Origin: Enterobacteria phage vB_EcoS_IME18
Sequence record: MH051911
Direction: 5' to 3' (one strand)
Length of the DNA stretch: 50,354 nucleotides
The position numbers were made by a program, and so were the translations under genes. Below the pieces are notes generated by a model. It was not told the DNA's origin. It saw only the letters and a list, made by a program, of their open reading frames with translations, and did no database searches. This document shows, one piece after another, positions 165 to 49,695 of the stretch. Numbering within the stretch: the first letter of the stretch is position 1; the number at the start of each line of letters is the position of its first letter.

Positions 165-196
165 TAAAAAAAGGACTATCCAAAAAAGGATAGTCC
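165..196 (-). terminator. intrinsic terminator, hairpin GGACTATCC/GGATAGTCC plus U-run on minus strand
   Basis: 9-bp inverted repeat 173-181/188-196, A8 run 165-172 (U-run on minus transcript); sits between 213..689 gene and next RBS. Confidence 0.6.
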
Positions 197-212
197 CCAT
201 ATTAAACGCTAA

Positions 213-689
213 TTACAGTTGATGCAACTGAACCTCAACAAGCTGAATATCTTTGTATTTAGTCCAGCCGCCAGCGTAGGTCCAGGTTGTTTCGATCGTG
301 CCATCAGATTTCTCTTGACCATCAACATCAAGTTTAACGGCAGAGCCGAAAGTTGGTGCTTCGGTGGATTTGGAAAGCATCCATACTCGGCCTGAAGTCA
401 TCACGTTGATAGCGCCGCCATCTTCGTAAATCATCTGATTTTGAGCGTTAACAGTCTGCCAGTGAGATCGGATTGCCACGCCGTAAGGAGTGGTTCCGGT
501 AGTAAGAGCCTTAACCAACTTATGACCATCAACCGCCTGAGCTTGAACAACTTGTACGGCAGCGCCAACAAGAACATCACCTTCATTAACGACACAAGCG
601 CCGTCAATATTGTACTTTGAAGTATCCGCAACCATACCCGGAAGCGCAATCGCCATATCTCGCTGATAAGATGCATTAATTTGTGCCAT
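213..689 (-). CDS. putative head decoration protein (lambda gpD-like position), paralog of junction gene
   Basis: ORF with SD AAGGAGAAA; located between scaffold and major capsid genes as gpD is in lambda; shares TPYG...SGRVW motifs with junction ORF. Confidence 0.55.
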   Translation of the reverse strand: MAQINASYQRDMAIALPGMVADTSKYNIDGACVVNEGDVLVGAAVQVVQAQAVDGHKLVKALTTGTTPYGVAIRSHWQTVNAQNQMIYEDGGAINVMTSGRVWMLSKSTEAPTFGSAVKLDVDGQEKSDGTIETTWTYAGGWTKYKDIQLVEVQLHQL

Positions 690-700
690 GATATTTCTCC

Positions 701-1813
701 TTACATTACTTTGCTTAAACGTGAATTTGGCGTAACAGGAGCGGCGTCGTTTTTCTCTTCCGGCTTGCCACCTTCGATAGAGTCGCCTTTTACTGCTTTA
801 CGCTGAATAGCCATGATATCAGAATCTTTAGCAACATCAAACATAGCGTCGATATATGCGTCTGATTTTTCGCTAACATCTTTATCAAGCATGGCTTTAA
901 CTACGGCAATCTTGACGTCTTTGATATCAAGACCATCATGTTTGACACCTGCGGTTTCTGCTACTGCGGTAACTTCTGCGCGTGCGGCGGCATCAGCTTT
1001 TTGCTTCTCTACTTCAGCCTTCACAAGTTCCGGCAGAGAGTCAACCTTAACCTTCAGCGCGTCGCGTTCAGCTTCGAAGCCATCAGCCTTGCCCTGAATG
1101 GTGGCAATCTGTGCGGTTAATTTTTCGATGTGGTTCGCAACGTCTTCGGTTACTTCCACATCAACGGAGTCGATCTTGATTTTTTTCATTTGCTTGTCCT
1201 CGTTAGTTGATTGAACGTTATTATAATACGGAAATTCCTGTTCAGCATCAAGGTTTAATTTAGCAATTCCAGCACGACCCTTGAAAACTAGTGCGATATG
1301 GTTGACCTTGATATTAGTCTGTACCGCGTCAAATTTCACCCAGCCTTCCGGCGGCGCTTCGTCCTGTTTCATATCCTCTTCGAAGATATATTCTCCAGTC
1401 TCATTTGAACCCCAGCCGGGCTTATCAATATCTACCGACGTATACCCTACAGATAATTCCCCGGCCTCCTTCGCTTTAGCCTTGCTGATCGCGTAGTCGC
1501 TGTAAATACTCAAAGGAACTTCAACGCCAACCCCTGAAGCAATACCAGCGCCAGCACACGATCCGACAACAACGTCCTTAGCATTTTGGGGAGTCACCGT
1601 TACGTGACCGACTGTGATCGGCTTGCCTGCAAAACTTTGCAAGGATTCTTGCTTGAAAACTTCGGACGCCGGACGGAACTCAACTCTATCGCCGTGCGGC
1701 GTTTTGTAAACCTGAGCGCCGATTCGCGCCACGATTGGGCGGTCAACTAAAAAACCGTTATCATCAAAGTGCGCCTTGATTTTTACTGAATCGAATCTTT
1801 GCTTTGCCTTCAT
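701..1813 (-). CDS. putative prohead protease/scaffolding protein
   Basis: Start reassigned to ATG 1811-1813 with SD AGGAG; C-terminal coiled-coil-like Ala/Glu/Lys-rich region; position between head morphogenesis and decoration genes. Confidence 0.55.
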   Translation of the reverse strand: MKAKQRFDSVKIKAHFDDNGFLVDRPIVARIGAQVYKTPHGDRVEFRPASEVFKQESLQSFAGKPITVGHVTVTPQNAKDVVVGSCAGAGIASGVGVEVPLSIYSDYAISKAKAKEAGELSVGYTSVDIDKPGWGSNETGEYIFEEDMKQDEAPPEGWVKFDAVQTNIKVNHIALVFKGRAGIAKLNLDAEQEFPYYNNVQSTNEDKQMKKIKIDSVDVEVTEDVANHIEKLTAQIATIQGKADGFEAERDALKVKVDSLPELVKAEVEKQKADAAARAEVTAVAETAGVKHDGLDIKDVKIAVVKAMLDKDVSEKSDAYIDAMFDVAKDSDIMAIQRKAVKGDSIEGGKPEEKNDAAPVTPNSRLSKVM

Positions 1814-1815
1814 TT

Positions 1816-2577
1816 TTAATCTCCTGTAGAAAAGTCTGGAACAGCCCAACAGCGGCAATTGTATTCCTCACCCGGGAATACATGATCGGAATCTACCGCT
1901 ATGCGCTTACCTTCCCATCTTACATGTTTTTCACGTTCGCGTAAATCCATCACCCCGCGCCAGAAATAGTAAGATACACCAGCGTCTTTTATGCGCTGCC
2001 GCATCAGTCTACTGTTCCATGTTCCGACAATTCCCGACGCCCTGTTTTTGGCCCAGCTTCGGTAAATACCAAATCGCTCCTTAGCCAGTTCAACAACAAA
2101 ATCCTTGCTTTTACCCTGACCGGATGCCGCACGAAGTTTATCAGTGAAATCAGTAACCATGTTGGCGGCAAATTTCCTGATAGAAGTAGTCACCTGCGAT
2201 CGCCACAGATTATATTGTCCTGAGTACCAGCTTTCGGCGGCGGTAGGACCAATCAGGGCAAGTAGCATAACGGCTTGATTCTTCTTACCTCCAGCATTGC
2301 GAGCGATACGCAGCCACTGCTTAGAGTTGAATTTATAGATCGTGAGCGCAACGGATGATAGAGAACCAATAATCGGAGCGATGAGTGATTCAACGTAATC
2401 AAGCAATGACCTTTCTGTCTGATCTATCTCTTCGTCAGTGGCGTCAAATTTCATCGGCTTTAATTCGTCACGCATTTTTTCAGTTAGTTTGGCTGCAACA
2501 TCCTGTAGGGAGCGCGACATTGCGCGCTCGCTCATTTCAGGATAGCGCCACTGTGTTGCAACGCCATTAATTTTCAT
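1816..2577 (-). CDS. head morphogenesis protein (SPP1 gp7 / Mu F-like minor head protein)
   Basis: 253-aa ORF directly after portal gene; sequence pattern typical of Mu F family (recalled, not searched). Confidence 0.65.
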   Translation of the reverse strand: MKINGVATQWRYPEMSERAMSRSLQDVAAKLTEKMRDELKPMKFDATDEEIDQTERSLLDYVESLIAPIIGSLSSVALTIYKFNSKQWLRIARNAGGKKNQAVMLLALIGPTAAESWYSGQYNLWRSQVTTSIRKFAANMVTDFTDKLRAASGQGKSKDFVVELAKERFGIYRSWAKNRASGIVGTWNSRLMRQRIKDAGVSYYFWRGVMDLREREKHVRWEGKRIAVDSDHVFPGEEYNCRCWAVPDFSTGD

Positions 2578-3887: not shown

Positions 3888-3904
3888 TGATTATATCTCA
3901 TTTA

Positions 3905-5473
3905 TTACCGCTTAACCATCCCGGCGAGTCGCTTCATTCTCTCGATAGGATCATCAATGGTCAGCAATTCGATGTTCGCCGCATCCATGAAGTTATCGAC
4001 GATATCATCATGCGGGTGGGTGTCATCGTAAGTAAAGGCGCTGTGCTCAGCGATAATTTCAGCAAGCATAGGGTGCTCTTCTGGCAGAACCACACGCCCT
4101 GCTTTAATAACTGGCTGAGCATCCATAGCTCGGGTAACTTTGTCTTTGTTACGCTGCAATGGAGTGATGGATATCGGAGTCTTTTTCCTTAGGTTCTGGA
4201 TTAAGCCCGTACCGCTTGCTTTGTCTTCCACGTAGATTTTACGAAGCACGCCCATTGATTTATTGTGTCTCCATGCCTGATTCACGAAGGCGGTAAATTG
4301 TTTCTCCATATCCGGCGCTTCCCACTTACCGCGAATGCCGTCGATAAAGTAAACCTTGTCGTTTTTCTTACCCCACAAACAAAAGACTGTGTAGTCGTTT
4401 AGCTCACCTGTCTTCTGAGCGGTATCAGCGGTGATAAAACGGTAATCATATTTACCAGGATCTGGCTCGTCAGCGTCAAGGCTGCTTCCGTAATAAGTCC
4501 ACCACTCCGAGTTAAACACGGAGCCACCAAGCGCGATCGGCTTCTGTTGATACTGAGAATCAAAGGTGTACTGGTCCGCTTCGCGCAAAGCTAATAGGTC
4601 GTGCACACTTTCCTTGCTGGGCCAGAATGAATAATGCTTAACACCATCCAATTCTACATACTCAGACGACAAAACGTCGCGCTCGAAGTAAGGCTGCAAC
4701 CAGTCAGGAAGCGTCTTTCCGTATTCTTCCGTCACCAGCGCCGGGATTGAGATCTGGTCAAACTCAATACCCATCCCGCCATTCATCATGAACCATGTTG
4801 AATCCTGAGCGTGCAGTCTTTGCTGAATTGCAATAATAGGAGTCTCGTTATGCATACGACGAGATCGGATGGTGTTTTTCAATAGCATGTGCGTACGCTC
4901 ACGCTTAACCTTTGAGAACATATCATCAGGCTTGTCGATATCATCGAGCATTACCATCCCTGAGAATCCCGGCATCATGTATCCACCACGCGAACCTGTA
5001 ATTCGACCTCCAGCCGCAGCTGATATCAACTCAAACCAAACCTTTCCGTCTTCGTTAAGAACCTGCATCTCCTCGTCTTTCGATGTACCGAACTTGCAAG
5101 GCCATAGCTCTTGAAATTCGTTGCTGCTGATAATCTCACGGACGCGCTTACTGTTACGCTTAACCAAGCTGTCAGCAAACGACACGTTAAGGTTTCGCAC
5201 CTTCTTACACTTGAGCATTGCGTACACCGGAAGGTGAATTGAGAACACTTCAGTTTTACCGGAACCTGGCGTGACGTTAAAGATTGTATTCCCTCGCCGC
5301 CCTGCAATAATTTCCTCCACTTCGTGACATAGGTAAAGGTGATGCCAGTTAGGCTGGAACTGCTGCGCCTGCATAAGCTGGAACCAGATCCGAATCATTT
5401 TTTCGAAATTGGCCTCGCTCATTTTCTTGATCGCCAGCTTCTGTGTTGCGTTAAGGTCTTCCCATTGAATCAT
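3905..5473 (-). CDS. terminase large subunit
   Basis: 522 aa; P-loop-like TPGSGKT near N-terminus; SD AGGAGAA; gene order small terminase-large terminase-portal. Confidence 0.85.
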   Translation of the reverse strand: MIQWEDLNATQKLAIKKMSEANFEKMIRIWFQLMQAQQFQPNWHHLYLCHEVEEIIAGRRGNTIFNVTPGSGKTEVFSIHLPVYAMLKCKKVRNLNVSFADSLVKRNSKRVREIISSNEFQELWPCKFGTSKDEEMQVLNEDGKVWFELISAAAGGRITGSRGGYMMPGFSGMVMLDDIDKPDDMFSKVKRERTHMLLKNTIRSRRMHNETPIIAIQQRLHAQDSTWFMMNGGMGIEFDQISIPALVTEEYGKTLPDWLQPYFERDVLSSEYVELDGVKHYSFWPSKESVHDLLALREADQYTFDSQYQQKPIALGGSVFNSEWWTYYGSSLDADEPDPGKYDYRFITADTAQKTGELNDYTVFCLWGKKNDKVYFIDGIRGKWEAPDMEKQFTAFVNQAWRHNKSMGVLRKIYVEDKASGTGLIQNLRKKTPISITPLQRNKDKVTRAMDAQPVIKAGRVVLPEEHPMLAEIIAEHSAFTYDDTHPHDDIVDNFMDAANIELLTIDDPIERMKRLAGMVKR

Positions 5474-6677: not shown

Positions 6678-6841
6678 TATGCAATCCTCTTGAATTTTTG
6701 CCGCTTACGGGTCTGCGGCGTTGCTTAACCACTATGCAACCGAGCTTGTTAGCTGGAAGTGTGAGAATCGTCTCACGCGTTGCGCCTAATTGCGCCTCGT
6801 CTGTCTACGGGATTAATACTATCACCGCTCAGGGATTTAGG

Positions 6842-7825: not shown

Positions 7826-7885
7826 TTCGATTTTCTCTCTTCGTTGTCGATGAGGTAACTATATCAAATCACCCCATCGACGTTT

Positions 7886-7900
7886 TAGCAATTCGTGCTA
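7886..7900 (-). promoter_or_regulatory. palindromic box TAGCA-N5-TGCTA (promoter-associated)
   Basis: TAGCAATTCGTGCTA; on minus strand TATAGT lies exactly 22 nt downstream (7859-7864); overlaps stop codon of kinase gene. Confidence 0.6.
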
Positions 7901-8470
7901 TTTATTGATGAACGTGGCGGCTATGTGCTGAGCGGTAATTTCTGGATGACCTTCGACAGAAAAGAAGTCACATTCCTGATAACCGTTAACCCCGATCATG
8001 TAGTCAAGATAGATATAGTCGCGGCTGTCGTTATCAAAGCTGCAACCTTTGCGATGTATGCGGCATAGCTTGACCTGGATATCACCTTCAATCATTTGCA
8101 AGATCTCATCTTTGAATCCACCATCAGTAAATACCGAAAGGGAGTGCGACTCTTTCACCTTGCTTTCCGCTCGCATACCGAAAAAGCGATTGCCGAATTG
8201 CGGCTTGATGACCTCTTCACTAATCCAGATCATAAACTGGCGTGGGCTTTTACCGTTCAGGATTGATGCTGGCTCTTCTTTATATCGACGGTCCTCATAC
8301 AAGAACATGAAATACTCGTAGTTAGCTTCACCCAGGATTGCTCGGGCAATCTCAAACATTGGCGCTTTGAAGCTGCGCAAGGCTACGTGATCGTAAGTGT
8401 CAGCAAGGATGCATCCGATAGTGTCTTTTCCCGCTCCAGGTGCGCCGTTTAAAATGATAGCTGTTTTCAT
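7898..8470 (-). CDS. P-loop kinase (polynucleotide kinase-like or dNMP kinase-like)
   Basis: Walker A GAPGAGKDT at N-terminus; LNGKSP motif; adjacent to PNK-type phosphatase gene. Confidence 0.65.
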   Translation of the reverse strand: MKTAIILNGAPGAGKDTIGCILADTYDHVALRSFKAPMFEIARAILGEANYEYFMFLYEDRRYKEEPASILNGKSPRQFMIWISEEVIKPQFGNRFFGMRAESKVKESHSLSVFTDGGFKDEILQMIEGDIQVKLCRIHRKGCSFDNDSRDYIYLDYMIGVNGYQECDFFSVEGHPEITAQHIAATFINK

Positions 8471-9190: not shown

Positions 9191-9258
9191 GATTTATTCC
9201 TCTGATTGGTTGCTTAACTCAATGAAGGGCATTCTATCAAATGCCCTTGAGCAAGTTT

Positions 9259-9273
9259 TAGCAATTCGTGCTA
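9259..9273 (-). promoter_or_regulatory. palindromic box TAGCA-N5-TGCTA (promoter-associated)
   Basis: TAGCAATTCGTGCTA; TAGAAT 22 nt downstream on minus strand; hairpin AAGGGCAT/ATGCCCTT in spacer. Confidence 0.6.
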
Positions 9274-9720
9274 TTACCAGCAATCGACCTCGTAGTCAGC
9301 CCAAGCGTCAAAATCACTTTGGCAGAATGTGCCGCTATAATTTTCCATCATTTCATCGATCAGGAAGTAGCACGACTCACCGTTACGATAGAAGTATGAA
9401 TCAGCAACGTTACGCGCCCAGCGCCCAGCATCTTTCTTGCTCATCTTCCAGTATTTCATTGCAATTTTCTTGAATGCGCGAACAACGCGTTTGCGGATCT
9501 TTATATGCTTGTACACAGCGTTGCAGCCGTAGGCCATATATTCGTTATCGCCAAGATTCTGCATAATGTACGGATTTACTTCTCTTGACGTAATCATCAG
9601 ATCGCCATCGCCGCGACGCTCATCATAAATACTTGCTGTCATGTAGTGACCTCTGAACATTCCGATGCCGTGAAGAGTGTATTCATCGTTAGGCGTTTCA
9701 ATGCAAATTAAGTGTTTCAT
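9274..9720 (-). CDS. hypothetical protein
   Basis: Start reassigned to ATG 9718-9720 with SD GAGGAAG; 148 aa. Confidence 0.5.
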   Translation of the reverse strand: MKHLICIETPNDEYTLHGIGMFRGHYMTASIYDERRGDGDLMITSREVNPYIMQNLGDNEYMAYGCNAVYKHIKIRKRVVRAFKKIAMKYWKMSKKDAGRWARNVADSYFYRNGESCYFLIDEMMENYSGTFCQSDFDAWADYEVDCW

Positions 9721-12553: not shown

Positions 12554-12612
12554 GCTATCGTCCTCGTTCGTTGTCGATGGGGTTACTATATCGCAACCCC
12601 TGAGTTGAGTTT

Positions 12613-12627
12613 TAACAAAAAGTGCTA
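12613..12627 (-). promoter_or_regulatory. palindromic box (promoter-associated)
   Basis: TAACAAAAAGTGCTA; TATAGT 22 nt downstream on minus strand. Confidence 0.6.
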
Positions 12628-12816
12628 TTCTTTAATTTCGAAGCAATCGGTGTCTTCGTCGAATATCCAGGGGTCGCCGTTATCATCAAGTAATGAGATA
12701 TTCCCGAAGCTGGTTAGCGATGCACTATAAGGCTTGTCAACGGTAAAGCACTCTTTAACTTCCTCGTAATCACTGCCTTTGAATACTGCAATCATTTGGT
12801 GCATAAAATCAGCCAT
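12625..12816 (-). CDS. hypothetical protein
   Basis: 63-aa ORF. Confidence 0.4.
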   Translation of the reverse strand: MADFMHQMIAVFKGSDYEEVKECFTVDKPYSASLTSFGNISLLDDNGDPWIFDEDTDCFEIKE

Positions 12817-14151: not shown

Positions 14152-14346
14152 TTAAGCCTCGGAAAAATAAGTGTTAAATCCTTTGAGTTTGTAGTCGCTG
14201 CCGACGCGCACCACGTTCCAGGTAAGACCAGAGTGATACGCAACCATATCCTCAAGGTCGATCGTGATTTCGGTTCCCTTCTTGAACAGACCCTTTTCAT
14301 GAGTTGAGTCTCGCTGAACAACCACTACGTCAATTTGCGTTTCCAT
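14152..14346 (-). CDS. hypothetical protein
   Basis: Start reassigned to ATG 14344-14346 with SD AGAGGA. Confidence 0.45.
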   Translation of the reverse strand: METQIDVVVVQRDSTHEKGLFKKGTEITIDLEDMVAYHSGLTWNVVRVGSDYKLKGFNTYFSEA

Positions 14347-14691: not shown

Positions 14692-15207
14692 TTACAATCC
14701 ACATTTCTCAATATGCGCTTTCATCTGGCGCACGATCTCATTTACATCACGAACCATTAACTCGCTATCGCCCAGCTTGCTAACATCAACGTCAAACGAA
14801 TCGAGGCAATCAGTCAGGCTAACTTTCTTCCGGCTGCGGCGCTTCTTCACCGGAACCTCTTCGTCTGTAACGATAACGGTTATCATCGTGATTGCCGCGT
14901 CATTCCGGCCTACCTTCACCTTTGCCACCTTGCCATACTTACAGAAGTGCCTGGTAATGATCGGAGTGATGAAAGCGGACTTGAATCGCTTCTCTACCTC
15001 CCCCTGGTTCTGGTCCACCCATCCGGCAGCGGCAGATTCAAGATCGCTATCGCTTACCTCCTGGTCACGGAAGTAGAATCGCGCGGCTTCGAGGGCCATA
15101 TCATCAGCCACGAAAGAGAACTCATTCATGCCTTTGTCGCGATACATTGCATCGCAGGTTAGTCGAATCATATCGGTGATTTTTAATTCCTGATTGGTGT
15201 TGCTCAT
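14692..15207 (-). CDS. hypothetical protein
   Basis: 171-aa ORF, SD AGAGGG; first gene of minus-strand early block. Confidence 0.55.
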   Translation of the reverse strand: MSNTNQELKITDMIRLTCDAMYRDKGMNEFSFVADDMALEAARFYFRDQEVSDSDLESAAAGWVDQNQGEVEKRFKSAFITPIITRHFCKYGKVAKVKVGRNDAAITMITVIVTDEEVPVKKRRSRKKVSLTDCLDSFDVDVSKLGDSELMVRDVNEIVRQMKAHIEKCGL

Positions 15208-15894: not shown

Positions 15895-16512
15895 ATGAAG
15901 TTAATTTGGTCACTATTCGACGGTTCCGGTCTTGCGGGTCATGAACTGGCAAAGCAAGGTCACAAGGTGATGTGCTTCAACTTTGACGGAGCAGATCACG
16001 GAGATTACGCAAAGTACAATGCCCGGGTTGAGCATCCGAACATTGAGTATGTGAACGTGTTCATTGATGCAACGTTTGAGCGTGATGCGATCGCGGGTGT
16101 GTATGGCAAGCCGGATTTTATTATGGCCTTCCCTCCTTGCACTGACCTGGCTGTTAGTGGTGCTCGTCACTTTGCAAGCAAGCGTGAGCGCGATCCGTTA
16201 TTCCAGGAGAAAGCTGTTGCCACCGCTAGGATTGCTGCGAATATTGGCGACGCCCTGGGAGTGACTTACATCATTGAGAATCCGGTGAGCGTCCTGTCAT
16301 CTGCCTGGAGAAAACCAGATCACTCCTTCAATCCCTGGGAGTATGGCGGCTACCTTCCTGAGAATGACGCACATCCCTGGTTCCCGATGTATATTGCGCC
16401 GCGCGATGCTTACCCGAAGAAAACTTGTCTTTGGACCTCTGACGATTTTGTCATGCCAGAGAAAAAACCTGTAACCTGCCTGACGGGTACTCTGCACAGC
16501 ACAGCAAGCTAG
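15895..16512 (+). CDS. short C5-cytosine methyltransferase-like protein
   Basis: Start reassigned to ATG 15895 (SD AGAGGAAG); motif I-like LFDGSGLAG, PC motif FPPCTD, ENV-like IIENPVSV; only about 205 aa, no obvious target-recognition domain. Confidence 0.5.
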   Translation: MKLIWSLFDGSGLAGHELAKQGHKVMCFNFDGADHGDYAKYNARVEHPNIEYVNVFIDATFERDAIAGVYGKPDFIMAFPPCTDLAVSGARHFASKRERDPLFQEKAVATARIAANIGDALGVTYIIENPVSVLSSAWRKPDHSFNPWEYGGYLPENDAHPWFPMYIAPRDAYPKKTCLWTSDDFVMPEKKPVTCLTGTLHSTAS

Positions 16513-16582
16513 GCGGCAAGTCCGCCAAAACAAAACTGATACGATCCCTGTCGCCGCGTGGATTTTTCAAAGCGATCGCAAA

Positions 16583-16597
16583 TAGCACTTTTTGTTA
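16583..16597 (+). promoter_or_regulatory. palindromic box (promoter-associated)
   Basis: TAGCACTTTTTGTTA; CATAAT 22 nt downstream. Confidence 0.6.
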
Positions 16598-16658
16598 AAA
16601 CTCGATCTGTGCGATTTGGCATAATTACCTCATCGAAACGAGATTGAGGAAAAACAAA

Positions 16659-19252: not shown

Positions 19253-20821
19253 ATGTTTAATATTAAGCCAAAACTGAATTACCAACAGATTATTGAGATC
19301 GCCAATAGCACTGGAGTTAATCCGGTGGCGATCGCAATTCGTGAAAACAGCTATGGTGACTCAGTTTCATTTTGGCAAGATCCGATCGATATCAATAACG
19401 GCAACGATAAGTTCCCTCTGATTTCGTTAGGTGGCGATAACCTGGTATTCGAATATGCAAAAGCAAAAGCTGAATCAGTCCAGTTCCCGGTTTCATCCGC
19501 GTATGCTCATTTTATCGGTTGCATCTCAGCCGCGATGCTCGGGAAGTTTTGGGTGCAATATCACGGAGAGGAACAGCCGACCGCGCTTTACATGGTAATC
19601 AGCCAGCCACCATCAACAGGTAAGTCCGCTATTAACTCAGCGGCGATAACTCCTATGCGTGCGGAGATTCAGCGACTGAATGAAGAGCGCAAAAAGGAAC
19701 GTATTCGTTTAACCAGTCAGCTACGCCAGGTTGAGAAGGAAATCAAGAATGATCCTAAAGGAAACACGACTGCGGCACTATACGAGGACAAAGAAAAACT
19801 GGAAGAGAAGATCAAAAAGATGGCTGATATTGTTTTTGCTGTATCAGATCCTACACCTGAAGGTCTTGCGAAAGTAGCCGCTGTTCAGGGCCACTTTTCC
19901 GTAATCTCTGATGAGGCAACGGCAATCAATACATTGCTCGGCCTGACTTATGGAGGTTCAGACAAGAAGTCAAACAGTGAACTTATCCTTAAGGCGTGGG
20001 ATAAAAACCACATGGAGGTAGCGCGTTCCAACCAGGACAACAACTTGTCTCTTTGCCCGGTTGGCTCGATCTGCGTAATTGCGCAGGATGAAACAATCAA
20101 AGGTATCATGGACGCAGGCCAACGAGGTATCGGTGTATCTGAGCGCTTCCTGTTAGTTCGCGAGGAACCGCTTTTAGGTACTCGTATTCTTTGTGATGAA
20201 AATGGTGATGCATTGTATAAAGAAGTCGATCGAGGACTGGTTAGCAAATATTACAGACTCGTTCACAACATCATGAAGGAGGAAAACGTTGTTCTCTCTG
20301 TAAGCCGTAATGCTATGCGTGAATTAAACCTTGCGCGTCAGGCGATGGAGCCGGATTTCGCCGCAGGTGGGAAATACTCTCACTCAATGCTACGCGGTCA
20401 TCTCGGCAAGTTCGATAAGCACGCCTTGCGTATTGCTTCAGTTCTCCACACGATCAAGAATTGGGATGGTGAATCACCGAACCGTTCCAACCGTGAGATT
20501 GACCTTGAAACAATGCAGGAAGCAATCATGATCTTCAATGAGCTTTCCAGGACTTATCTGTCGTCTGCCAGCGCTGCCGGGTATGCTGGTGATGAAGCTG
20601 AATCTCGCAAGCTGATTGATGTTATCACTGAGATCGCAAAGAAGAACAAAGGGCGCGCTCCGATTCATAGCATTGTTGCAAAGTGCCGTAACGTTACGCC
20701 GTTCAACGGTCAACAGAAAGTAGCTGAGCGAATCGATAGCCTGCTGATCACGCTCGAAGAGATGAACTACACTTGCCGCATTGATGATATTGTTTTCATC
20801 AATCCTCGACTGATGGGTTAA
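19253..20821 (+). CDS. putative replication-associated ATPase (P-loop-like), function uncertain
   Basis: Start reassigned to ATG 19253 (SD AAGGAG); 522 aa; deviant Walker-A-like QPPSTGKS. Confidence 0.45.
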   Translation: MFNIKPKLNYQQIIEIANSTGVNPVAIAIRENSYGDSVSFWQDPIDINNGNDKFPLISLGGDNLVFEYAKAKAESVQFPVSSAYAHFIGCISAAMLGKFWVQYHGEEQPTALYMVISQPPSTGKSAINSAAITPMRAEIQRLNEERKKERIRLTSQLRQVEKEIKNDPKGNTTAALYEDKEKLEEKIKKMADIVFAVSDPTPEGLAKVAAVQGHFSVISDEATAINTLLGLTYGGSDKKSNSELILKAWDKNHMEVARSNQDNNLSLCPVGSICVIAQDETIKGIMDAGQRGIGVSERFLLVREEPLLGTRILCDENGDALYKEVDRGLVSKYYRLVHNIMKEENVVLSVSRNAMRELNLARQAMEPDFAAGGKYSHSMLRGHLGKFDKHALRIASVLHTIKNWDGESPNRSNREIDLETMQEAIMIFNELSRTYLSSASAAGYAGDEAESRKLIDVITEIAKKNKGRAPIHSIVAKCRNVTPFNGQQKVAERIDSLLITLEEMNYTCRIDDIVFINPRLMG

Positions 20822-21233: not shown

Positions 21234-21345
21234 GCAAGGGTTGTTGAGTCTGTTACTCACTTCAATGAGGGCCAACAACGACAGTGAGCACAATCTTTGC
21301 GATCAGGAAGGAGAGTTACTCCTTCACGTAAAAAGGTACAAATAG
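21145..21345 (+). CDS. hypothetical protein (overlapping, +1 frame relative to 20826..21233)
   Basis: ATG 21145 with SD GGAGAG spacer 7; stop TAG lies in box. Confidence 0.35.
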   Translation: MKICLANVETLIDRNVELCARLQLTKEEFEQGLLSLLLTSMRANNDSEHNLCDQEGELLLHVKRYK

Positions 21346-21357
21346 CACTTTTTGTTA
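21343..21357 (+). promoter_or_regulatory. palindromic box (promoter-associated)
   Basis: TAGCACTTTTTGTTA; TATATT 22 nt downstream. Confidence 0.6.
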
Positions 21358-21432
21358 AAACACCAGATCTCGTATCGGGTATATTTGTTTCATCGAAACG
21401 AAGCGACCCGAAGGAAAGCATTATGGCTAACA

Positions 21433-21638: not shown

Positions 21639-21643
21639 AAGAA

Positions 21644-21667
21644 AGGAGGCTTACGCCTCCTTTTTTT
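21644..21667. terminator. bidirectional intrinsic terminator between convergent genes
   Basis: Stem AGGAGGC/GCCTCCT, loop TTAC, T7 run on plus and U-rich on minus; overlaps last codons of spanin gene. Confidence 0.7.
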
Positions 21668-22755: not shown

Positions 22756-22873
22756 AATCTCACCATATATTTTTTGAACAAGTGAGTCGATTTTAACCTT
22801 CAAATTTACTTGATACAACGCAAAAAGGCCAGCATGTAAATCATGCCAGCCTGTAAGGTGATGAATGATATTG

Positions 22874-24848: not shown

Positions 24849-25035
24849 TAGTTAATTTCTCCACGTCAGAGATGAAGCCTTCGACTTCTTCAACCGAGCA
24901 ACGGTAATAAGACATTTTAAGGAAGTTCATAGCAATATCCCAATCGAAGTTGCCGCCTTGCTTGTCAGTGATATGAACAGCCATTTTTGCGGACTGTTGA
25001 GCGATATTGAAAAAGTTTGCGTTAATGCGTGCCAT
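24826..25035 (-). CDS. hypothetical protein
   Basis: Start reassigned to ATG 25033-25035 with SD GAGGAA. Confidence 0.45.
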   Translation of the reverse strand: MARINANFFNIAQQSAKMAVHITDKQGGNFDWDIAMNFLKMSYYRCSVEEVEGFISDVEKLTNADKKAR

Positions 25036-28562: not shown

Positions 28563-28575
28563 GGCTATTAATCCT

Positions 28576-28604
28576 TTGAATCGTTGTAGCGTTTACGCTA
28601 TAAT
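28576..28604 (+). promoter_or_regulatory. sigma70-type promoter (-35 TTGAAT, 17-bp spacer, -10 TATAAT)
   Basis: TTGAAT 28576-28581 and TATAAT 28599-28604; upstream of HTH gene 28656; its -10 overlaps the -10 of the divergent box promoter. Confidence 0.55.
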
Positions 28605-28627
28605 ACACGGCATACAGTAAACGTTTT

Positions 28628-28642
28628 TAGCAAAAAGTGCTA
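28628..28642 (-). promoter_or_regulatory. palindromic box (promoter-associated, divergent)
   Basis: TAGCAAAAAGTGCTA; on minus strand TATTAT 22 nt downstream, upstream of helicase; also sits about 10 bp from RBS of plus gene 28656. Confidence 0.55.
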
Positions 28643-28655
28643 TAGGAGAATTAAG

Positions 28656-29108
28656 ATGAGTATTCAACGCATCGCGGAGTCAACTGGTGAAATCGATAAA
28701 CGTCACATCAATGGTAACAACGGAACTCGACGCGGTAAAGACAAAAAGCCACGACAGCGCTGCGGGTTCTATATTCATAAGGAAGAAACACGCGCCGGAT
28801 TGCGAGCACGACTTGATGCGCTTATCGAATATTATGGTGGCCCTGCGGCATGCGCAAAGGCACTAAAAGTAACAAATCAGACGGTGCAAGGCTGGAAAGA
28901 ACGCAACATGATTTCGTGGCAAGGCGCTGAGGCTGCACATCGCGCTTACCGCCGACAGGGGTGTAAAGGATACCGCGCATCATGGCTGAGATTCGACCTC
29001 AAGTTTGATGGTAACGGCAAGTGCCTTGAGAAGCGATGCAAGAACAAGAAATTCATGCGGGTTGTGAAGAAGGAAGATATCGGAACGACCAATAGCATTT
29101 TTAGTTAA
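28656..29108 (+). CDS. putative HTH DNA-binding regulator (Cro/YdaS-like)
   Basis: Segment GGPAACAKALKVTNQTVQGWKERNMISWQGAEAAH resembles Cro-type HTH; SD AGGAG. Confidence 0.5.
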   Translation: MSIQRIAESTGEIDKRHINGNNGTRRGKDKKPRQRCGFYIHKEETRAGLRARLDALIEYYGGPAACAKALKVTNQTVQGWKERNMISWQGAEAAHRAYRRQGCKGYRASWLRFDLKFDGNGKCLEKRCKNKKFMRVVKKEDIGTTNSIFS

Positions 29109-29169
29109 AACAAACTACGCGTAGCGGGTTAACATCCTTCTACGCGTTTTTTATTTTGGAGATCTGGAA

Positions 29170-30105
29170 GTGAACGAAGAATTTATGATGTTTCAGAAAG
29201 AGGACGTTTTACCGTACATGAAGGGGTTATGGCGCGAGGCTTTCCAATCAATCTGCGGATTGCCGAATGATGTTTTTAATAAGAAGCACCAACCCTGCCC
29301 AAACTGCGGCGGTAAAGACCGATTTCGCTGGACTGACAATCTTAACACTCCAGGCGACGGCGGCGCGATCTGTAACTCATGCGGCAACGACTCAGGGATC
29401 GGTTGGTTGATGAAGTTAACTGGTATGCCGTATAGCGAATGCATAAACATCCTGGGGAGATTTCTCGGAAAGGTTCCGCAGGAATACATTGTCAAGGCCA
29501 ATAAAAAAGCGCGAAGAACTCCGGTGTCTGGCGTCAATGTTATGATGGCAGACCATGAAGCAGTGATGAAAGTTATGGAGCGCACAGAGAAGCGCGTAAA
29601 CACGCCTCTAAGCATGTTTGAGTCGCTACCAACTGAATCATTCGACGTTGGCGTAAAACGTCGAGAGGATGGCGGTGAATCGGTATTTCACACTATCCCG
29701 TGTCAACTTGTGCATGAGGACGGGCTTGATGACGAGTTTTGCAATATTTTGATTATTGATGAGGAAGGAAGGGAGTCATTTTACGCGAAGAAATACACGA
29801 GTTGCTCGGTTGCCGTGACTGGTAAAACAGAAAAGGCGATCTACTTATGCCTGAACTGGATTGATGCTCAGCATATTGCATTTCATACAAAGCAAGAAGT
29901 ATGGGCCTGCTTCACTCCTGAAAATATCGAAATGGTTGCGTACAGGTATAAAGGTGATCGAGAAGTAAGGGTGGCGTGCGAACCTTCAGACAAGGATACC
30001 TTGTACATGGCAGACGACCGACAATTAAAAATAATCATCCCGAATCTTGGAGGGTACCGTTCAGGAATGCAATCCAAATTATTCTCAGCAAGCGATCTAC
30101 TCTAA
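29170..30105 (+). CDS. DNA primase (zinc-ribbon type)
   Basis: CPNCGG...CNSCGN zinc-binding primase N-terminal motif; 311 aa; followed by terminator. Confidence 0.6.
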   Translation: MNEEFMMFQKEDVLPYMKGLWREAFQSICGLPNDVFNKKHQPCPNCGGKDRFRWTDNLNTPGDGGAICNSCGNDSGIGWLMKLTGMPYSECINILGRFLGKVPQEYIVKANKKARRTPVSGVNVMMADHEAVMKVMERTEKRVNTPLSMFESLPTESFDVGVKRREDGGESVFHTIPCQLVHEDGLDDEFCNILIIDEEGRESFYAKKYTSCSVAVTGKTEKAIYLCLNWIDAQHIAFHTKQEVWACFTPENIEMVAYRYKGDREVRVACEPSDKDTLYMADDRQLKIIIPNLGGYRSGMQSKLFSASDLL

Positions 30106-32230: not shown

Positions 32231-32260
32231 AAATAAGCCCCGCAATGCGGGGCTTTTTAT
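32231..32260. terminator. bidirectional intrinsic terminator between tail fibre and ssb
   Basis: Stem AAGCCCCGC/GCGGGGCTT, loop AAT, flanked by A-run and T-run. Confidence 0.75.
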
Positions 32261-35265: not shown

Positions 35266-35288
35266 AAGAAAAGCCCCGCAAGGGGCTT
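35262..35288 (-). terminator. intrinsic terminator after distal tail genes
   Basis: Stem AAGCCCC/GGGGCTT, loop GCAA, A-rich run on plus side (U-run on minus transcript). Confidence 0.6.
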
Positions 35289-39782: not shown

Positions 39783-39809
39783 ATTATACAGGCGAAAAAA
39801 AACCCGCGC
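39783..39809 (-). terminator. intrinsic terminator/attenuator between I-like and J-like genes
   Basis: Stem AACCCGC/GCGGGTT preceded by A8 on plus (U-run on minus transcript). Confidence 0.55.
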
Positions 39810-39823
39810 AAGGCGGGTTAATT

Positions 39824-45916: not shown

Positions 45917-45938
45917 GATATTTCTCCTGATTGGTTAA

Positions 45939-45953
45939 TAGCACTTTTTGTTA
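45939..45953 (+). promoter_or_regulatory. palindromic box adjacent to chaperone G RBS
   Basis: TAGCACTTTTTGTTA about 20 bp upstream of G start on opposite strand; TACGAT 22 nt downstream on plus. Confidence 0.4.
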
Positions 45954-45989
45954 AAAGCAAAGAGTGCAAAGTTGATACGATGATTTTAC

Positions 45990-46029: not shown

Positions 46030-46698
46030 TTAGGCACCTGGAGATGCCAGAGTTGATGAGACGAAAGTAAAGTCACCTTTCAGGGATACGGCGAGTTCCA
46101 CCGTTTCCATTTCGTTAACCTGCGTGGATGGGATATCGTTAAACGACAAGATGCCAGCCCACATACGCATTTCGCTCGCTTTCGGCACGTACATTCGAAC
46201 CGCTGTTACCTGGCCAGACGAATCCAGCTTGCGCAGAATCGGGTAGATCGGGTTATCAAATTCGTGCGCGAAAGTGTACGTTAGCGATACCGCAGATTTA
46301 AACGTTGGGATCTGCTGCTCTTTATCGTCGGACAAACACTGATAAGTGTAATACTGCTGCTCGCCGCCGTCCTGACCAATCTCCTGTACGCAAGGAATCT
46401 CAGTCCAGCCAGTAATTTTTGCAAAGCTCATTGTACCGCCAGTCGGGAAAACAAGAGTATCAGAGGTGTCAATTCCAGCAAGAGTGATGCTTGTTTCTTG
46501 AGCGTCAGTAACAATTAGCACTCGACTAACCATCTTAGCCCAAGTTGACTGAGTTACAATAACGTAATCGCCTTTTACTAAGTCACCTTTAGATGCAACT
46601 GTAGCAACAGGATTATCTGCATTAGTGATAGCGGTCGCCTCAATCTCTACTCCGCGAGAGGTTTCCACGAAAATTTGCGCGCCATTTGGTAAGTGCAT
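46030..46698 (-). CDS. major tail protein (lambda gpV-like)
   Basis: 222 aa; position upstream of chaperone pair; followed by strong terminator. Confidence 0.65.
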   Translation of the reverse strand: MHLPNGAQIFVETSRGVEIEATAITNADNPVATVASKGDLVKGDYVIVTQSTWAKMVSRVLIVTDAQETSITLAGIDTSDTLVFPTGGTMSFAKITGWTEIPCVQEIGQDGGEQQYYTYQCLSDDKEQQIPTFKSAVSLTYTFAHEFDNPIYPILRKLDSSGQVTAVRMYVPKASEMRMWAGILSFNDIPSTQVNEMETVELAVSLKGDFTFVSSTLASPGA

Positions 46699-46699
46699 A

Positions 46700-47098
46700 T
46701 TAAGTCTCCTTTGTGTCTACTCGTACTGTAAAGCGAACCGGAATCATCCACCCGCTTTCATGTTTAACAATTTGATGCACGATTGCACCCTCGAAAATAT
46801 AACCAACGTTAAGCATTTTACCATCTTTGAAAAAATCAGCAATCTCTTTTGCTTTCAATCTTGCCTCGTCAACGCCGGAACCTGGAGGGAACACTACGCC
46901 GATCTGAACGATTGCGATGTAAGATTTACACTTTCTGTCAATGGATAGATAAAGCGTATCCCCTTCAATGTAGTTGAACCTCAGCCACATCCCGCCATCC
47001 TTCGGCGGTGTGAAATTTCTGTTTTCCATGTAGTGAGGAAAGTCTCTGTACTTTGATAGAAAAGCGGCTCGCGCCGCCGCTGATAACTCATAGTGCAT
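46700..47098 (-). CDS. putative tail terminator (gpU-like position)
   Basis: 132 aa, immediately upstream of major tail gene. Confidence 0.4.
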   Translation of the reverse strand: MHYELSAAARAAFLSKYRDFPHYMENRNFTPPKDGGMWLRFNYIEGDTLYLSIDRKCKSYIAIVQIGVVFPPGSGVDEARLKAKEIADFFKDGKMLNVGYIFEGAIVHQIVKHESGWMIPVRFTVRVDTKET

Positions 47099-47624
47099 TT
47101 TGCTGTCTCCTTGCCTGCTTGATTGCGTCAGCCATATATGATCTAAGCCTTAACGCCACAAGACCGACAACGCCGCTCGGTGCTTGCTGTGAATGACCGT
47201 ACTCAAGAGCGTTTGCATAAATCAACATGTTTGAAAAGTGAACTGATGTTATCGCGCCGCCACGGCTGAACATGCCATAAGTTTTGGCCTGCTCCTCACC
47301 TCTGACGACACCGCCAGTTTTATCGTATCGGTTTAATGCGTGGTTAGGTATTTCGTTAAAAGTTATCTGCCAGTTACCCTTGAATCGACCTGTATCAACA
47401 GGGGAGCGGCTAACAAGAGCGTCGTGAACATCCCTTACGAATATCTCAATGGCATGTTCTAACGTGCTTTCAGCTGCCTTAATCCACGCATCAATCTCGC
47501 CTTGAAATCTACGAATCTGATAATTAGCCACCGACTGATACCCTCCGTAATACTGGACGATAGGCGACTGGTTCCAGTGACGCCTGAACCGGGCGAGCAT
47601 CAACGACAACATGACGAATGCCAT
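47088..47624 (-). CDS. putative tail completion protein (HK97 gp10 / gpZ-like)
   Basis: Segment ANALEYGHS resembles gp10-family motif; start uncertain (ATG candidates 47600-47624). Confidence 0.4.
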   Translation of the reverse strand: MAFVMLSLMLARFRRHWNQSPIVQYYGGYQSVANYQIRRFQGEIDAWIKAAESTLEHAIEIFVRDVHDALVSRSPVDTGRFKGNWQITFNEIPNHALNRYDKTGGVVRGEEQAKTYGMFSRGGAITSVHFSNMLIYANALEYGHSQQAPSGVVGLVALRLRSYMADAIKQARRQQNAL

Positions 47625-47904
47625 CAATCTCTATATAGTCACCTTCGTTTATTTCATGATCATTATTGAAGATCCCCAAAATATCTGAGGCGCGGATAGT
47701 TTCCCCGTCAATCTCACGCGCGTTCGGTCTTCTCGTCGCGCCGGATATTGGAATAACCTGTTCCATCGGTGGGATCTCGAATCCGTTTTCATCATATCCG
47801 TATTCAACTTGTTTTATCAGGTTCATAGGTCTTGACGGATCGGTGAAGAAAGCCACGCCTTTGCGAGCCATTCTTTCAATCTGTGAGTAGTTCATTAGTG
47901 GCAT
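47524..47904 (-). CDS. putative head-tail joining protein
   Basis: 126-aa ORF in connector gene block. Confidence 0.4.
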   Translation of the reverse strand: MPLMNYSQIERMARKGVAFFTDPSRPMNLIKQVEYGYDENGFEIPPMEQVIPISGATRRPNAREIDGETIRASDILGIFNNDHEINEGDYIEIDGIRHVVVDARPVQASLEPVAYRPVLRRVSVGG

Positions 47905-48305
47905 CCTCCACGGAGTCCTGTCATTAATGCGAATCTACCACGGCGTCTCGCTTTAAGCTGTTCGAACATCTTACCCCACGGCGTCGAAAGCATCATGTTC
48001 CCTGACTGGTTCTTCGTAACCTCTCCGAAAGTCTGGCTAAATTCACCGCTCAGGGAGAATGACGTAACGCGTCGTGAGTACGATTCCAGATCCTCATCTT
48101 CACCTTTTAGCGCCCCGTCAAGGAAAGCAAGGTGCAATGCATAAAGAGCGAGCGCTTTGACGTATGCGTCTTTAAAGGTCTTCTGGCATACAAAAAGCTC
48201 AGCCATTTCTACCCACGCATAAAGCGTTTCGTCTGGAACCTTACGAAGTGCCGGAACCAGCTTTCGCATTTGCTCAACAACTGCAATTAAAGTTTCTTGA
48301 TTCAT
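47895..48305 (-). CDS. putative head-tail connector/adaptor protein
   Basis: 136-aa ORF; LALYALHLAF-type segment reminiscent of gp6-like connectors. Confidence 0.4.
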   Translation of the reverse strand: MNQETLIAVVEQMRKLVPALRKVPDETLYAWVEMAELFVCQKTFKDAYVKALALYALHLAFLDGALKGEDEDLESYSRRVTSFSLSGEFSQTFGEVTKNQSGNMMLSTPWGKMFEQLKARRRGRFALMTGLRGGCH

Positions 48306-48349
48306 AATTTACCCCCATAAAAAAAGGCGCTACATGAGCGCCTTGATGA

Positions 48350-48637
48350 TTAATATTCGCCGCCGTCCTCAAGCTCTTTAACGCTTTTGCTATCCCACGG
48401 ATCTGGCTTCGTGATCTTTGCCATTTCAGCGCGGATTTTGCGGTTGGTTGCACTGTCGTCTTTAACTTCGATTTCTTCGCGAGCAATTAAGCAACGCAGG
48501 CCGGGCAAATCAAGAACGGACGCCGGAAGCGTGACCTCTTCATCTGGAAGAACTTTAGCAAAGGAGCCATCTTCAAGACGGAACATCTGAAGAGCTACAC
48601 CAACATTTACGATAACAACAGTTTTTTCTTTAGCCAT
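48350..48637 (-). CDS. hypothetical head-associated protein
   Basis: 95-aa ORF with SD GGAGAAA directly after capsid-gene terminator. Confidence 0.45.
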   Translation of the reverse strand: MAKEKTVVIVNVGVALQMFRLEDGSFAKVLPDEEVTLPASVLDLPGLRCLIAREEIEVKDDSATNRKIRAEMAKITKPDPWDSKSVKELEDGGEY

Positions 48638-48650
48638 TTTGATTTCTCCA

Positions 48651-48679
48651 ATAAAAAAGGGACTAACTAAGTTAGCCCC
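48651..48679 (-). terminator. intrinsic terminator after major capsid gene
   Basis: Stem GGGACTAACT/AGTTAGCCCC with A7 on plus (U-run on minus transcript), immediately followed by next RBS. Confidence 0.6.
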
Positions 48680-48686
48680 TATAATA

Positions 48687-49646
48687 TTACACGCCAGTGA
48701 TTAAGACAATAGTCATCGGGCGATAAATTGTAAGACCAGTACATTTAGAGGTGCAAGGCACTTTAAAGTGCAAGTCTTTCGGCTGTGCTGGCAGCATGTT
48801 AAATGCTTCCGGGATCTCGATGGACATATTCATCGGATTCTTTTCGTACACCAGCACACCTTTAGTTCCAGCGCCGTCGATATCTTCAAGTTCTGCGATA
48901 GAGTCGATTTCGATACCTGAGTTCTGAGACTTGAAATAGTCCAGATAAGACATGGTAGTCTCAGGCATACGAATCGCCAGCACCTTACGCATGGACGGCG
49001 GGATCAGAATGTTGGTAGCTCGGTGCTGGCCTCGAGTAATCGTCTCGATGGTTTCGATCGCCTGAGTCAATTCCGCTTCAGCCGTTTCCGGTTTCTGAGT
49101 TGCGCCATCCATCCACTTACCGGAGGTAATTTTGGTGATGTTCGGATGATTGAACACGGACACAATCTTGTGCGGCGCGGAACCTTTGAACACCAGGCGG
49201 TTAACAAGCTGATCATGAGCCAACTGGCACGCACTTGCCTTACGGGTTGACAGTGGGCGACCAGTTGCCTGACCTGCTTTGATTTCGTCGATTGAGATCA
49301 GATACGCGTTACCCAGACGGAACACCTTGCCAAACTCAGAAGTACCCAGGGCGTCAACCAGCGGAAGATCGTCGGTGTAGTCTGCGATAATCTGAGCCGT
49401 ACCAACCTTGTCAAAGGTCATGTATTCAAACGTCTTATCAGTCGGAGAAAGATCGGTTGTAACCGGGAATACGCGTAAAGCTGAGCCGACCGGGTAGTCT
49501 TCTTCATAGGACTGGCTTTTGATGCGGTGTAGTTCCTGAGCGGTCCAGATACCCATCGTTGCGGCTGCATCCTGTTTTACGCCAGCCTGGATCAGATACA
49601 TTTCAACATTGCTTTTATCTGCTTCATCAAATTTTTTAGTAGTCAT
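48687..49646 (-). CDS. major capsid protein (lambda gpE-like position)
   Basis: 319 aa; SD GGAGAAG; flanked by terminator hairpins on both sides. Confidence 0.7.
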   Translation of the reverse strand: MTTKKFDEADKSNVEMYLIQAGVKQDAAATMGIWTAQELHRIKSQSYEEDYPVGSALRVFPVTTDLSPTDKTFEYMTFDKVGTAQIIADYTDDLPLVDALGTSEFGKVFRLGNAYLISIDEIKAGQATGRPLSTRKASACQLAHDQLVNRLVFKGSAPHKIVSVFNHPNITKITSGKWMDGATQKPETAEAELTQAIETIETITRGQHRATNILIPPSMRKVLAIRMPETTMSYLDYFKSQNSGIEIDSIAELEDIDGAGTKGVLVYEKNPMNMSIEIPEAFNMLPAQPKDLHFKVPCTSKCTGLTIYRPMTIVLITGV

Positions 49647-49664
49647 GATTACTTCTCCGTAGTT

Positions 49665-49695
49665 AATAAAAAAGCCGTGATTATGTTCACGGCTT
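49665..49695 (-). terminator. intrinsic terminator between junction gene and capsid gene
   Basis: Stem AAGCCGTGA/TCACGGCTT, loop TTATGT, A-run on plus (U-run on minus transcript). Confidence 0.6.

Follow-up and report, generated by a model that had tools for sequence, protein, structure and literature searches.

The structural genes of Enterobacteria phage vB_EcoS_IME18 (sequence record MH051911) are punctuated by RNA hairpins followed by runs of U, many of which nearly touch the Shine-Dalgarno (SD) sequence of the next gene. What role do these elements play in late gene expression? A first-pass annotation of the sequence suggested that they are partial-readthrough attenuators, which set protein stoichiometry across one long late transcript. 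Here, we analyze the elements and their counterparts in related phages. The window (i.e., the whole stretch of DNA analyzed) is the complete, circularly permuted genome, 50,354 bp, of a T1-like coliphage (Tunavirus, Drexlerviridae). We find it likely that the elements, situated at every non-overlapping late-gene junction, act on host RNA polymerase as intrinsic (Rho-independent) terminators. Most of these terminators may be interlocked with promoter-like elements at base-pair-precise spacing, the sole part of the picture that possibly goes beyond published annotation.

At the level of the genome, identity to T1, JMPW2 and SH2 is 93–96%. The late region is 92–96% identical to those of JMPW2, SH2, pSf-2 and T1, and the T1 proteins are collinear with the window genes. 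The late operon occupies the minus strand, running from ~6100 to 1 and then from 50354 to ~35270, with the Ig-like decoration gene continuous across the window ends. A gap-by-gap table reveals two kinds of late junctions: those in which the genes overlap or lie within 11 nt of each other, and those with gaps of 38–113 nt (n = 12). Each of the 12 late-operon gaps of at least 38 nt contains a hairpin, followed in 11 cases by a U-run. A further hairpin and U-run after orf31 closes the operon, bringing the number of hairpin/U-run sites to 12. All eight junctions named in the first-pass annotation do carry such an element on the minus-strand transcript, and there are four more (orf55–TerS, orf46–connector1, J–orf32 and the end of orf31). 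Hairpins lie at both flanks of Ig-decoration, of orf46 and of orf32–orf31.

These 12 hairpins have stems of 7–11 bp, loops of 3–6 nt and folding energies between -10.4 and -17.1 kcal/mol (z-scores from -2.6 to -6.5 relative to dinucleotide shuffles). Among the 8 nt 3′ of the stem, 5–7 are U at all 12 sites. A strict scan of the whole window (a perfect stem of 6 bp or more with 4 or more GC pairs, and 6 or more T in 9) returned 19 minus-strand and 5 plus-strand matches, versus 0.7–0.8 ± 0.8 per strand in 40 dinucleotide shuffles. Twelve of the 19 minus-strand matches are the late-operon sites, all intergenic and in the sense orientation. A loose terminator scan gave no significant excess (21 matches vs 18.9 expected, 27 vs 18.5, and 19 vs 11.2), and a loose RNAfold scan yielded ~60 matches per strand, mostly noise; we relied on the strict scan and shuffles instead. 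Rfam, including its curated leader and riboswitch RNAs, had no family at gathering score anywhere in the window.

We compared ~85 Drexlerviridae loci, comprising T1, tunus, CF1, GaoY1-9D, TSK1, ECH1 and 80 IMG/VR loci whose capsid proteins are 55–100% identical to that of the window, with orthologous genes located by tblastn. A sense-oriented hairpin with a U-run is found at the same ten junctions in 76–100% of the unique gap sequences, versus 1–3% of shuffled gaps. By junction, the counts are 68/72 (upstream of TerS), 32/38 (TerL–portal), 19/19 (decoration–Ig-decoration), 37/49 (upstream of the capsid gene), 38/39 (capsid–orf46), 30/37 (orf46–connector1), 54/55 (major tail protein (MTP)–chaperone G), 48/52 (chaperone GT–tape measure protein (TMP)), 46/47 (M–L) and 48/51 (I–J). 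The remaining late junctions of the relatives are tight and lack a hairpin. Across the family, 14–29 distinct stem sequences are seen per junction (14 at decoration–Ig-decoration, 21 at capsid–orf46). Where the stems can be aligned, compensatory changes are evident in 5/8 pairs (decoration–Ig-decoration), 4/7 (GT–TMP), 3/5 and 2/7. MAFFT followed by RNAalifold gave no consensus structure at 5 of the 10 junctions, the stems having been replaced rather than mutated, and presence versus shuffle counts took the place of consensus-structure alignment. That position and structure are kept while stem sequences turn over indicates that selection acts on structure and U-run rather than on sequence. The hairpin in the capsid leader retains its U-run only in Tunavirus and Tempevirinae-type genomes; in other genera, it is either a GCCGTG...CACGGC stem without a U-run or lost. 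Overall, the comparison shows the predicted terminator map to be a fixed, family-wide part of Drexlerviridae late-gene organization. In GC-rich stem, U-tract, sense placement, excess over chance and conserved structure, the late hairpins match the description of intrinsic terminators.

The presence of hairpins in this phage is already known, in that the T1 record (GenBank AY216660) annotates 10 of the 12 orthologous late elements as rho-independent terminators, several with a ribosome-binding site (RBS) at the next base. T1 differs in that the TerL–portal and MTP–chaperone hairpins are unannotated. T1 "transcriptons" are attributed to Roberts et al. 2004, as that work is cited in PMC11447400, and 21 intergenic terminators have been reported for phage TLS (PMC11447400).

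With stems listed 5′ to 3′ on the minus strand, the hairpins fall into two classes, class A having the stem 7–12 nt before the SD and class B having the SD 33–72 nt away. Class A comprises seven late sites, those before the genes for portal, Ig-decoration, major capsid protein (MCP), orf46, connector1, TMP and orf32. Here, the U-run makes up the entire stem-to-SD spacer, and stems end 16–24 nt upstream of the ATG. Class A gaps, at 41–61 nt, appear too short for an alternative antiterminator structure, although alternative folds were not examined. Class B comprises the four sites before TerS, chaperone G, L and J.

In class B, promoter-like elements overlap the hairpin or follow it, with the -10 hexamer at a fixed distance after the U-run. 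The hairpin between orf55 and TerS (6112–6095; AACCCGCTTCGGCGGGTT plus TTTTTAT, -11.3 kcal/mol; T1 terminator 8322–8344) ends 46 nt before the SD and 58 nt before the ATG. Two -10-like elements, CAATAT (6082–6077) and TG-G-TAAAAT (6074–6069), lie 3′ of it. The family consensus at this site is TTTTTTT.TGCCTGcAAT.TGgTA.AAT, with TAnnnT in 58/58 sequences and a best -10 score of 6.34 versus 3.24 ± 0.17 in shuffles; TGGTAnAAT is conserved but there is no clear -35 element upstream of TerS. The MTP–chaperone G hairpin (46018–46001; AGGGGGCTTGCGCCCCCT plus TCTTCATTT, -14.0 kcal/mol; stem to SD 72 nt, stem to ATG 84 nt) has the weakest U-run of the 12 late sites (UCUUCAUU). Its loop holds the -35-like TTGCGC (46011–46006), 17 nt from TAAAAT (45988–45983). 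In 51/52 family sequences, TTG is found 16–18 nt upstream of the best -10, compared with 0 at control spacings, and -10 enrichment is weaker here than at TerS, J and L. The M–L hairpin (41999–41979; AAGCCCGCCTTGCGCGGGTTT plus TTTTG, -11.3 kcal/mol; stem to SD 33 nt, stem to ATG 45 nt; T1 terminator 22793–22816) likewise has TTGCGC in the loop (41990–41985), 17 nt from TAGAAT (41967–41962), with TTG at 16–18 nt in 23/42 sequences (0 at control spacings) and a -10 score of 4.97 versus 3.30 in shuffles. At I–J, a hairpin with an 8-U run (39819–39801; -10.4 kcal/mol; stop codon to stem 4 nt, stem to SD 42 nt, stem to ATG 54 nt; T1 terminator 24972–24994) carries TTGCGC in its loop (39811–39806), 17 nt from TATAAT (39788–39783); TTG occurs at 16–18 nt in 29/44 sequences (1 at control spacings), the -10 score is 5.68 versus 3.34, and TAnnnT is present in 44/44.

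In five class A sites, a -10-like hexamer instead abuts, or nearly abuts, the 5′ arm of the stem. The clearest case is the capsid gene, which is preceded by a predicted σ70 promoter (49725–49698, minus strand) with -35 TTGACG (49725–49720), a 16-nt spacer and TG-n-TATTAT (-10 at 49703–49698). This promoter is near consensus (scan score 10/12, with TG), and together with an upstream A-tract it is conserved in all genera sampled; the T1 record annotates it at 15062–15089, the sole promoter annotated in the late region. The Ig-decoration–MCP hairpin (49696–49671; GAAGCCGTGAACATAATCACGGCTTT plus TTTATTAAC, -14.5 kcal/mol; T1 terminator 15095–15121) starts 1 nt after the -10 and lies between promoter and capsid SD, with 12 nt from stem to SD and 24 nt to the ATG. 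In 12/15 family sequences, a -10-like hexamer is found 0–1 nt before this stem. At TerL–portal, TATAAT (3895–3890) lies 1 nt upstream of the hairpin at 3888–3867 (AGGGCTGTCAATTGACGGCCCT plus TTTTATTGGAGG, -15.6 kcal/mol; SD and ATG 7 and 16 nt after the stem). The portal hexamer ends 0–1 nt before the stem in 31/33 sequences (TATAAT in 20, TACAAT in 5, TAAAAT in 5), and the -10 score is 4.83 versus 2.36 ± 0.27 in shuffles. Between the decoration and Ig-decoration genes, TAATAT (204–199) abuts the hairpin at 198–171 (-17.1 kcal/mol, z -6.5; SD and ATG 7 and 19 nt after the stem; T1 terminator 14237–14269, RBS 14270), and the distance from the stem is 0–1 nt in 19/19 sequences. The MCP–orf46 hairpin (48680–48658; -13.3 kcal/mol; stem 6 nt from the stop codon, 8 nt from the SD and 20 nt from the ATG; T1 terminator 16107–16137, RBS 16138) is abutted by TTGTCT-17-TATTAT (48709–48681; scan score 9/12), with a -10-like hexamer 0–1 nt from the stem in 36/40 sequences. 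The J–orf32 hairpin (36322–36301; -14.8 kcal/mol; stem 4 nt from the stop codon, 7 nt from the SD and 19 nt from the ATG; T1 terminator 28568–28594, RBS 28595) is abutted by TTGGCA-17-TAATAT (36352–36324). Besides portal, -10 enrichment is seen upstream of two further class A hairpins (3.53 vs 2.55 and 3.74 vs 2.52).

The other two class A sites lack a promoter-like element. These are orf46–connector1 (48344–48324; -11.4 kcal/mol; stem 5 nt from the stop codon and 18 nt from the ATG; T1 terminator 16445–16470) and chaperone GT–TMP (45283–45264; -11.8 kcal/mol; stem to ATG 21 nt; T1 terminator 19508–19527), where the frameshift product's stop codon is immediately next to the stem. In the family sequences, there is no -10 enrichment on either side of these hairpins (2.29 vs 2.13 for connector1; 0.70 vs 1.54 for TMP). 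Operon-end terminators, at 35288, 22852 and 32255, also have no -10-like hexamer upstream of the stem. We considered whether the upstream hexamers are mere A-tracts complementary to the U-run and rejected this idea; the conserved pattern is T-A-n-n-n-T rather than a run of A, and neither the operon-end terminators nor the two promoter-less sites have such a hexamer. Three types of interlock can be distinguished, according to whether the loop holds the -35, the -10 adjoins the 5′ arm, or the loop holds the -10 (as in the hairpin at 29117–29147). The predicted capsid, chaperone G, L and J elements have the features of σ70 promoters, namely A2 and T6 in the -10 hexamer and, 16–18 nt upstream of it, a -35 TTG.

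Three hairpins fall outside this scheme. That between TerS and TerL (5504–5491; GGCGCGCGAGCGCC then AACATAGGAG) is followed by 1 U in 8 nt and is not terminator-like, and the gap is absent in most relatives. The terminator after orf31 (35288–35271; AAGCCCCTTGCGGGGCTT plus TTCTTTTAT, -11.6 kcal/mol; T1 terminator 29602–29624), convergent with cor, marks the operon end. Finally, the hairpin–U-run–SD arrangement recurs in the early region between orf68 and orf67 (10137–10112, minus strand; -15.2 kcal/mol; stem to SD 8 nt; T1 terminator 4001–4034, RBS 4035). The first-pass annotation had put at least nine such hairpins within 10–20 nt of the next SD. This describes the seven class A sites and the early one well enough, but fails at the class B sites, three of which (MTP–chaperone, M–L and I–J) it had named. 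It also noted a recurring motif, TTTTTATTGGAGAA. At up to 3 mismatches, the motif is not enriched (10 matches vs 8.2 expected), but all four matches with up to 2 mismatches, and 7/10 overall, come directly after a hairpin.

How might such a series of terminators be compatible with expression of the downstream genes? The terminators would divide the late region into ~11 short units that overlap via read-through. In class B, a σ70-type promoter would overlap the hairpin and U-run, the -35 TTG lying within the loop at three of the four sites (G, L and J) and the -10 after the U-run, such that transcription stopped at the terminator could restart at once. In class A sites with an upstream hexamer (portal, Ig-decoration, capsid, orf46, orf32), local RNAs would start inside the 5′ arm; an RNA begun 7 nt past the hexamer would retain only 2–5 bp of the 9–10 bp stem. 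Lacking the full hairpin, it could escape the very terminator that stops transcripts arriving from upstream. Contact between U-run and SD would represent the most compact packing, with the stem ending 16–24 nt before the ATG, roughly at the 5′ edge of the ribosome-binding site. We offer tentatively the idea that these features together make up a "self-insulating" design, in which terminator hairpins are interlocked with the next promoter, upstream RNAs are stopped, local RNAs escape, and elsewhere read-through is gated by ribosomes.

The sites without a promoter-like element would depend on read-through. Because the hairpins before connector1 and TMP leave only 18–21 nt before the ATG and no promoter-like element, the seven-gene block from connector1 to the major tail gene, and TMP–M, appear to require it. 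The upstream gene's stop codon lies 0–8 nt from the stem at seven of the twelve sites, and the family median is 3–7 nt at five junctions. In an engineered reporter of lambda tR2, a stop codon 5 bp away reduces termination efficiency from ~90% to <10%, as a ribosome terminating there keeps the hairpin from folding (Li et al., NAR 2016, PMC4824070). These late sites resemble tR2 in that a few bases separate the stop codon from the intrinsic terminator after it, and by extension from that system read-through is probably set by stop-codon proximity, with the finishing ribosome covering the 5′ arm as polymerase reaches the U-run. Ribosome proximity may in this way provide a host-only route to partial read-through. 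No antiterminator Pfam family was detected in 10 early/regulatory proteins, the only hit being a sub-threshold Cro-like helix-turn-helix; the T1 record annotates no antiterminator, and few of the small early proteins have a known function. The part of the earlier proposal that concerns partial read-through is consistent with these data, given the terminator anatomy, the logical requirement for read-through and the proximity of stop codons, which makes leakiness plausible.

Several points weigh against this interpretation. Leakiness is suggested by ribosome proximity, and the U-runs point the other way; most are long and uninterrupted, which alone predicts efficient termination. The escape of local RNAs depends on the exact start site, and initiation 3–4 nt further upstream would leave the full hairpin in the RNA. 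At MCP–orf46, the hexamer partly overlaps the TAA stop codon and is weaker evidence. Family sequences share descent, so the shuffle controls overstate their independence. Promoters of σ70 type leave the "late" timing unaccounted for. Terminator activity, efficiencies and promoter calls are all in silico predictions here, and a literature search found no transcript 5′ or 3′ ends, coverage or termination assays for this or any other T1-like phage. (A candidate transcriptome paper, PMC13250531, concerns a T5-like rather than a T1-like phage.)

The proposal that a single late transcript begins upstream of TerS, with the hairpins acting as partial attenuators whose stepwise effect on abundance sets stoichiometry, seems unlikely. 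It shares with the terminator interpretation the real terminator anatomy and the need for read-through at two junctions, and phages T7 and LUZ7 are known to tune expression with leaky terminators. Virion copy numbers, reported as 415 for capsid, 360 for decoration protein gp49, 60 for Ig-decoration gp48, 12 for portal, 12 for adaptor, 6 for stopper, 6 for tail terminator and 6 per ring for tail tube (PMC11945409), also provide some support, as the drops from 360 to 60 and from capsid 415 to adaptor 12 fit some of the hairpins. But the same numbers rise between terminase and portal (12), rise further to decoration (360), and go up again from adaptor (12) to the many-copy tail tube, defying a monotonic gradient, so internal promoters and translation efficiency must contribute; attenuation alone could not set stoichiometry. 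Moreover, eleven serial terminators with good U-runs would leave J almost no transcript. The notion of one long late transcript is further contradicted by the conserved, near-consensus promoter directly before the capsid gene and by the conserved -35/-10 pairs that overlap four hairpins. Alternatively, the hairpins might act in RNA stability or processing, either guarding the 3′ ends of upstream segments against exonucleases or, after cleavage in the AU-rich stretch that precedes them, forming 5′ stem-loops that stabilize the mRNA downstream, to give segmental half-lives. Any terminator hairpin also stabilizes the RNA 3′ end, an AU-rich hexamer lies 0–1 nt upstream of many stems, and the capsid-leader stem, which lacks a U-run outside Tunavirus and Tempevirinae, would suit a 5′ stem-loop. 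Such a role may apply to the capsid-leader hairpin; as a general account we consider it quite improbable, since a pure stability element needs no U-run and yet the U-run is kept at all ten junctions, including class B sites far from an SD, and the hexamers hold the T-A-n-n-n-T pattern typical of -10 elements.

Two other explanations strike us as very improbable. If the hairpin and U-rich spacer served translation, by keeping the SD single-stranded or by acting as an S1-binding or standby site, one could readily understand why the U-run is directly 5′ of the SD at eight sites, particularly as U-rich leaders can enhance translation. However, four of the hairpin–U-run elements lie 33–72 nt from any SD, and the mean predicted probability of being unpaired at positions -15 to -1 is 0.51 for class A sites versus 0.61 for tight junctions lacking a hairpin. 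We reject the translation-insulator idea because accessibility of the RBS is no better behind hairpins. Similarly doubtful is the view that hairpin–promoter cassettes are DNA-level module boundaries, leftovers or mediators of gene insertion with little role in late gene dosage. It is true that Ig-decoration, orf46 and orf32–orf31 are flanked by hairpins, and that relatives carry 470–670 nt of extra DNA at TerL–portal and before the capsid gene, but the hairpins persist in genera without insertions, and their structure-preserving turnover argues for ongoing selection on RNA or terminator function.

The terminator interpretation invites comparison with several known systems. T7 T-phi after gene 10 and the LUZ7 terminators mapped by ONT-cappable-seq are similar in that a leaky terminator follows the major capsid gene, sequential read-through yielding nested transcripts and so balancing expression; these phages differ in encoding their own RNA polymerases and in having measured efficiencies, whereas in vB_EcoS_IME18 the host polymerase is presumed and the terminators are sequence predictions. 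In T4-type PeSL cassettes and lambdoid "morons," a stem-loop or terminator adjoins a promoter at gene-module boundaries. Compared by description only, the arrangement here differs, with the -35 in the loop or the -10 abutting the stem, and with the elements situated between core structural genes. The finding of hairpins re-discovers annotated features of a classic phage and is of little consequence in itself. The comparative result is modestly useful, as it provides a family-wide terminator map and describes the interlocking with promoters. If correct, our interpretation would make T1-like phages a compact, host-polymerase-only example of insulated transcription units, as well as a source of natural terminator–promoter parts and a test bed for ribosome-gated read-through. 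A self-insulating design would also mean that late transcription is coupled to translation without an antiterminator protein.

Some additional structures were noted in the window. Hairpins at 32235–32255, 21642–21663 and 39801–39819 score as terminators on both strands, and the first two, which lie between convergent gene blocks, look like true bidirectional terminators. One strict hairpin-plus-T match occurs within coding sequence, in tailU just downstream of the orf43 overlap (47063–47081, minus strand; AGCGGCGGCGCGAGCCGCT plus TTTCTATC); its tail is weak, and the match is probably due to chance. The 164-nt non-coding gap between orf58 and orf57 (6678–6841, minus strand) folds as a series of small hairpins (-47.6 kcal/mol, z -2.2), with no tRNA detected by ARAGORN and no Rfam match in this gap. 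In the relative ECH1, a tRNA-Arg gene lies upstream of TerS, and extra genes, including one for an HNH endonuclease, are found at several late junctions. Other relatives have gaps of 470–670 nt at TerL–portal (L008, L009, L028, L032 and L067), and in ~30 loci the decoration paralogue and the capsid gene are 575–665 nt apart.

Finally, a 19-nt repeat, ATAGCACnnnTTGnTAAAA, is present in 28 copies in the window at up to 3 mismatches, versus 2.3 expected. Sites include 7883–7901 (-), 9256–9274 (-), 12610–12628 (-), 16582–16600 (+), 21342–21360 (+) and 28625–28643 (-). In the early and middle regions, copies on both strands are oriented with transcription. Of 27 copies, 19 have a -10 hexamer (TATAGT, TATAAT or TATTAT, in many cases with TG before it) that begins precisely 19 nt downstream, putting the repeat at about -50 to -32, as would be the case for an activator site. 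The same repeat has been described for TLS, T1 and Rtp, its function being left open (PMC11447400). Two copies in the late region (45938–45956 (+) and 49701–49719 (+)) are reverse-oriented; one supplies the capsid promoter's spacer and -10, and the other falls within a degenerate version of the capsid promoter that precedes chaperone G. One might speculate that a repeat-binding protein acts oppositely on the early promoters and the capsid promoter. Minus-strand promoters of the early region (7897–7826, 9273–9191, 12624–12554, 13678–13622 and 25111–25040) have their -10 within a strong hairpin without a U-run (down to -23 kcal/mol), either in its loop or in an arm, and early-region promoters share a conserved initial transcribed sequence, CATCGAnAACGA. 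In the gap between the Cro-like regulator and primase genes (29092–29165, plus strand), a repeat copy is followed, after 19 nt, by TAACAT in the loop of the hairpin 29117–29147, and then by TTTTTATTTTGGAG and a start codon, as if the promoter were embedded in a terminator. T1 annotates the corresponding Cro-like/primase hairpin as a terminator with an adjacent RBS.

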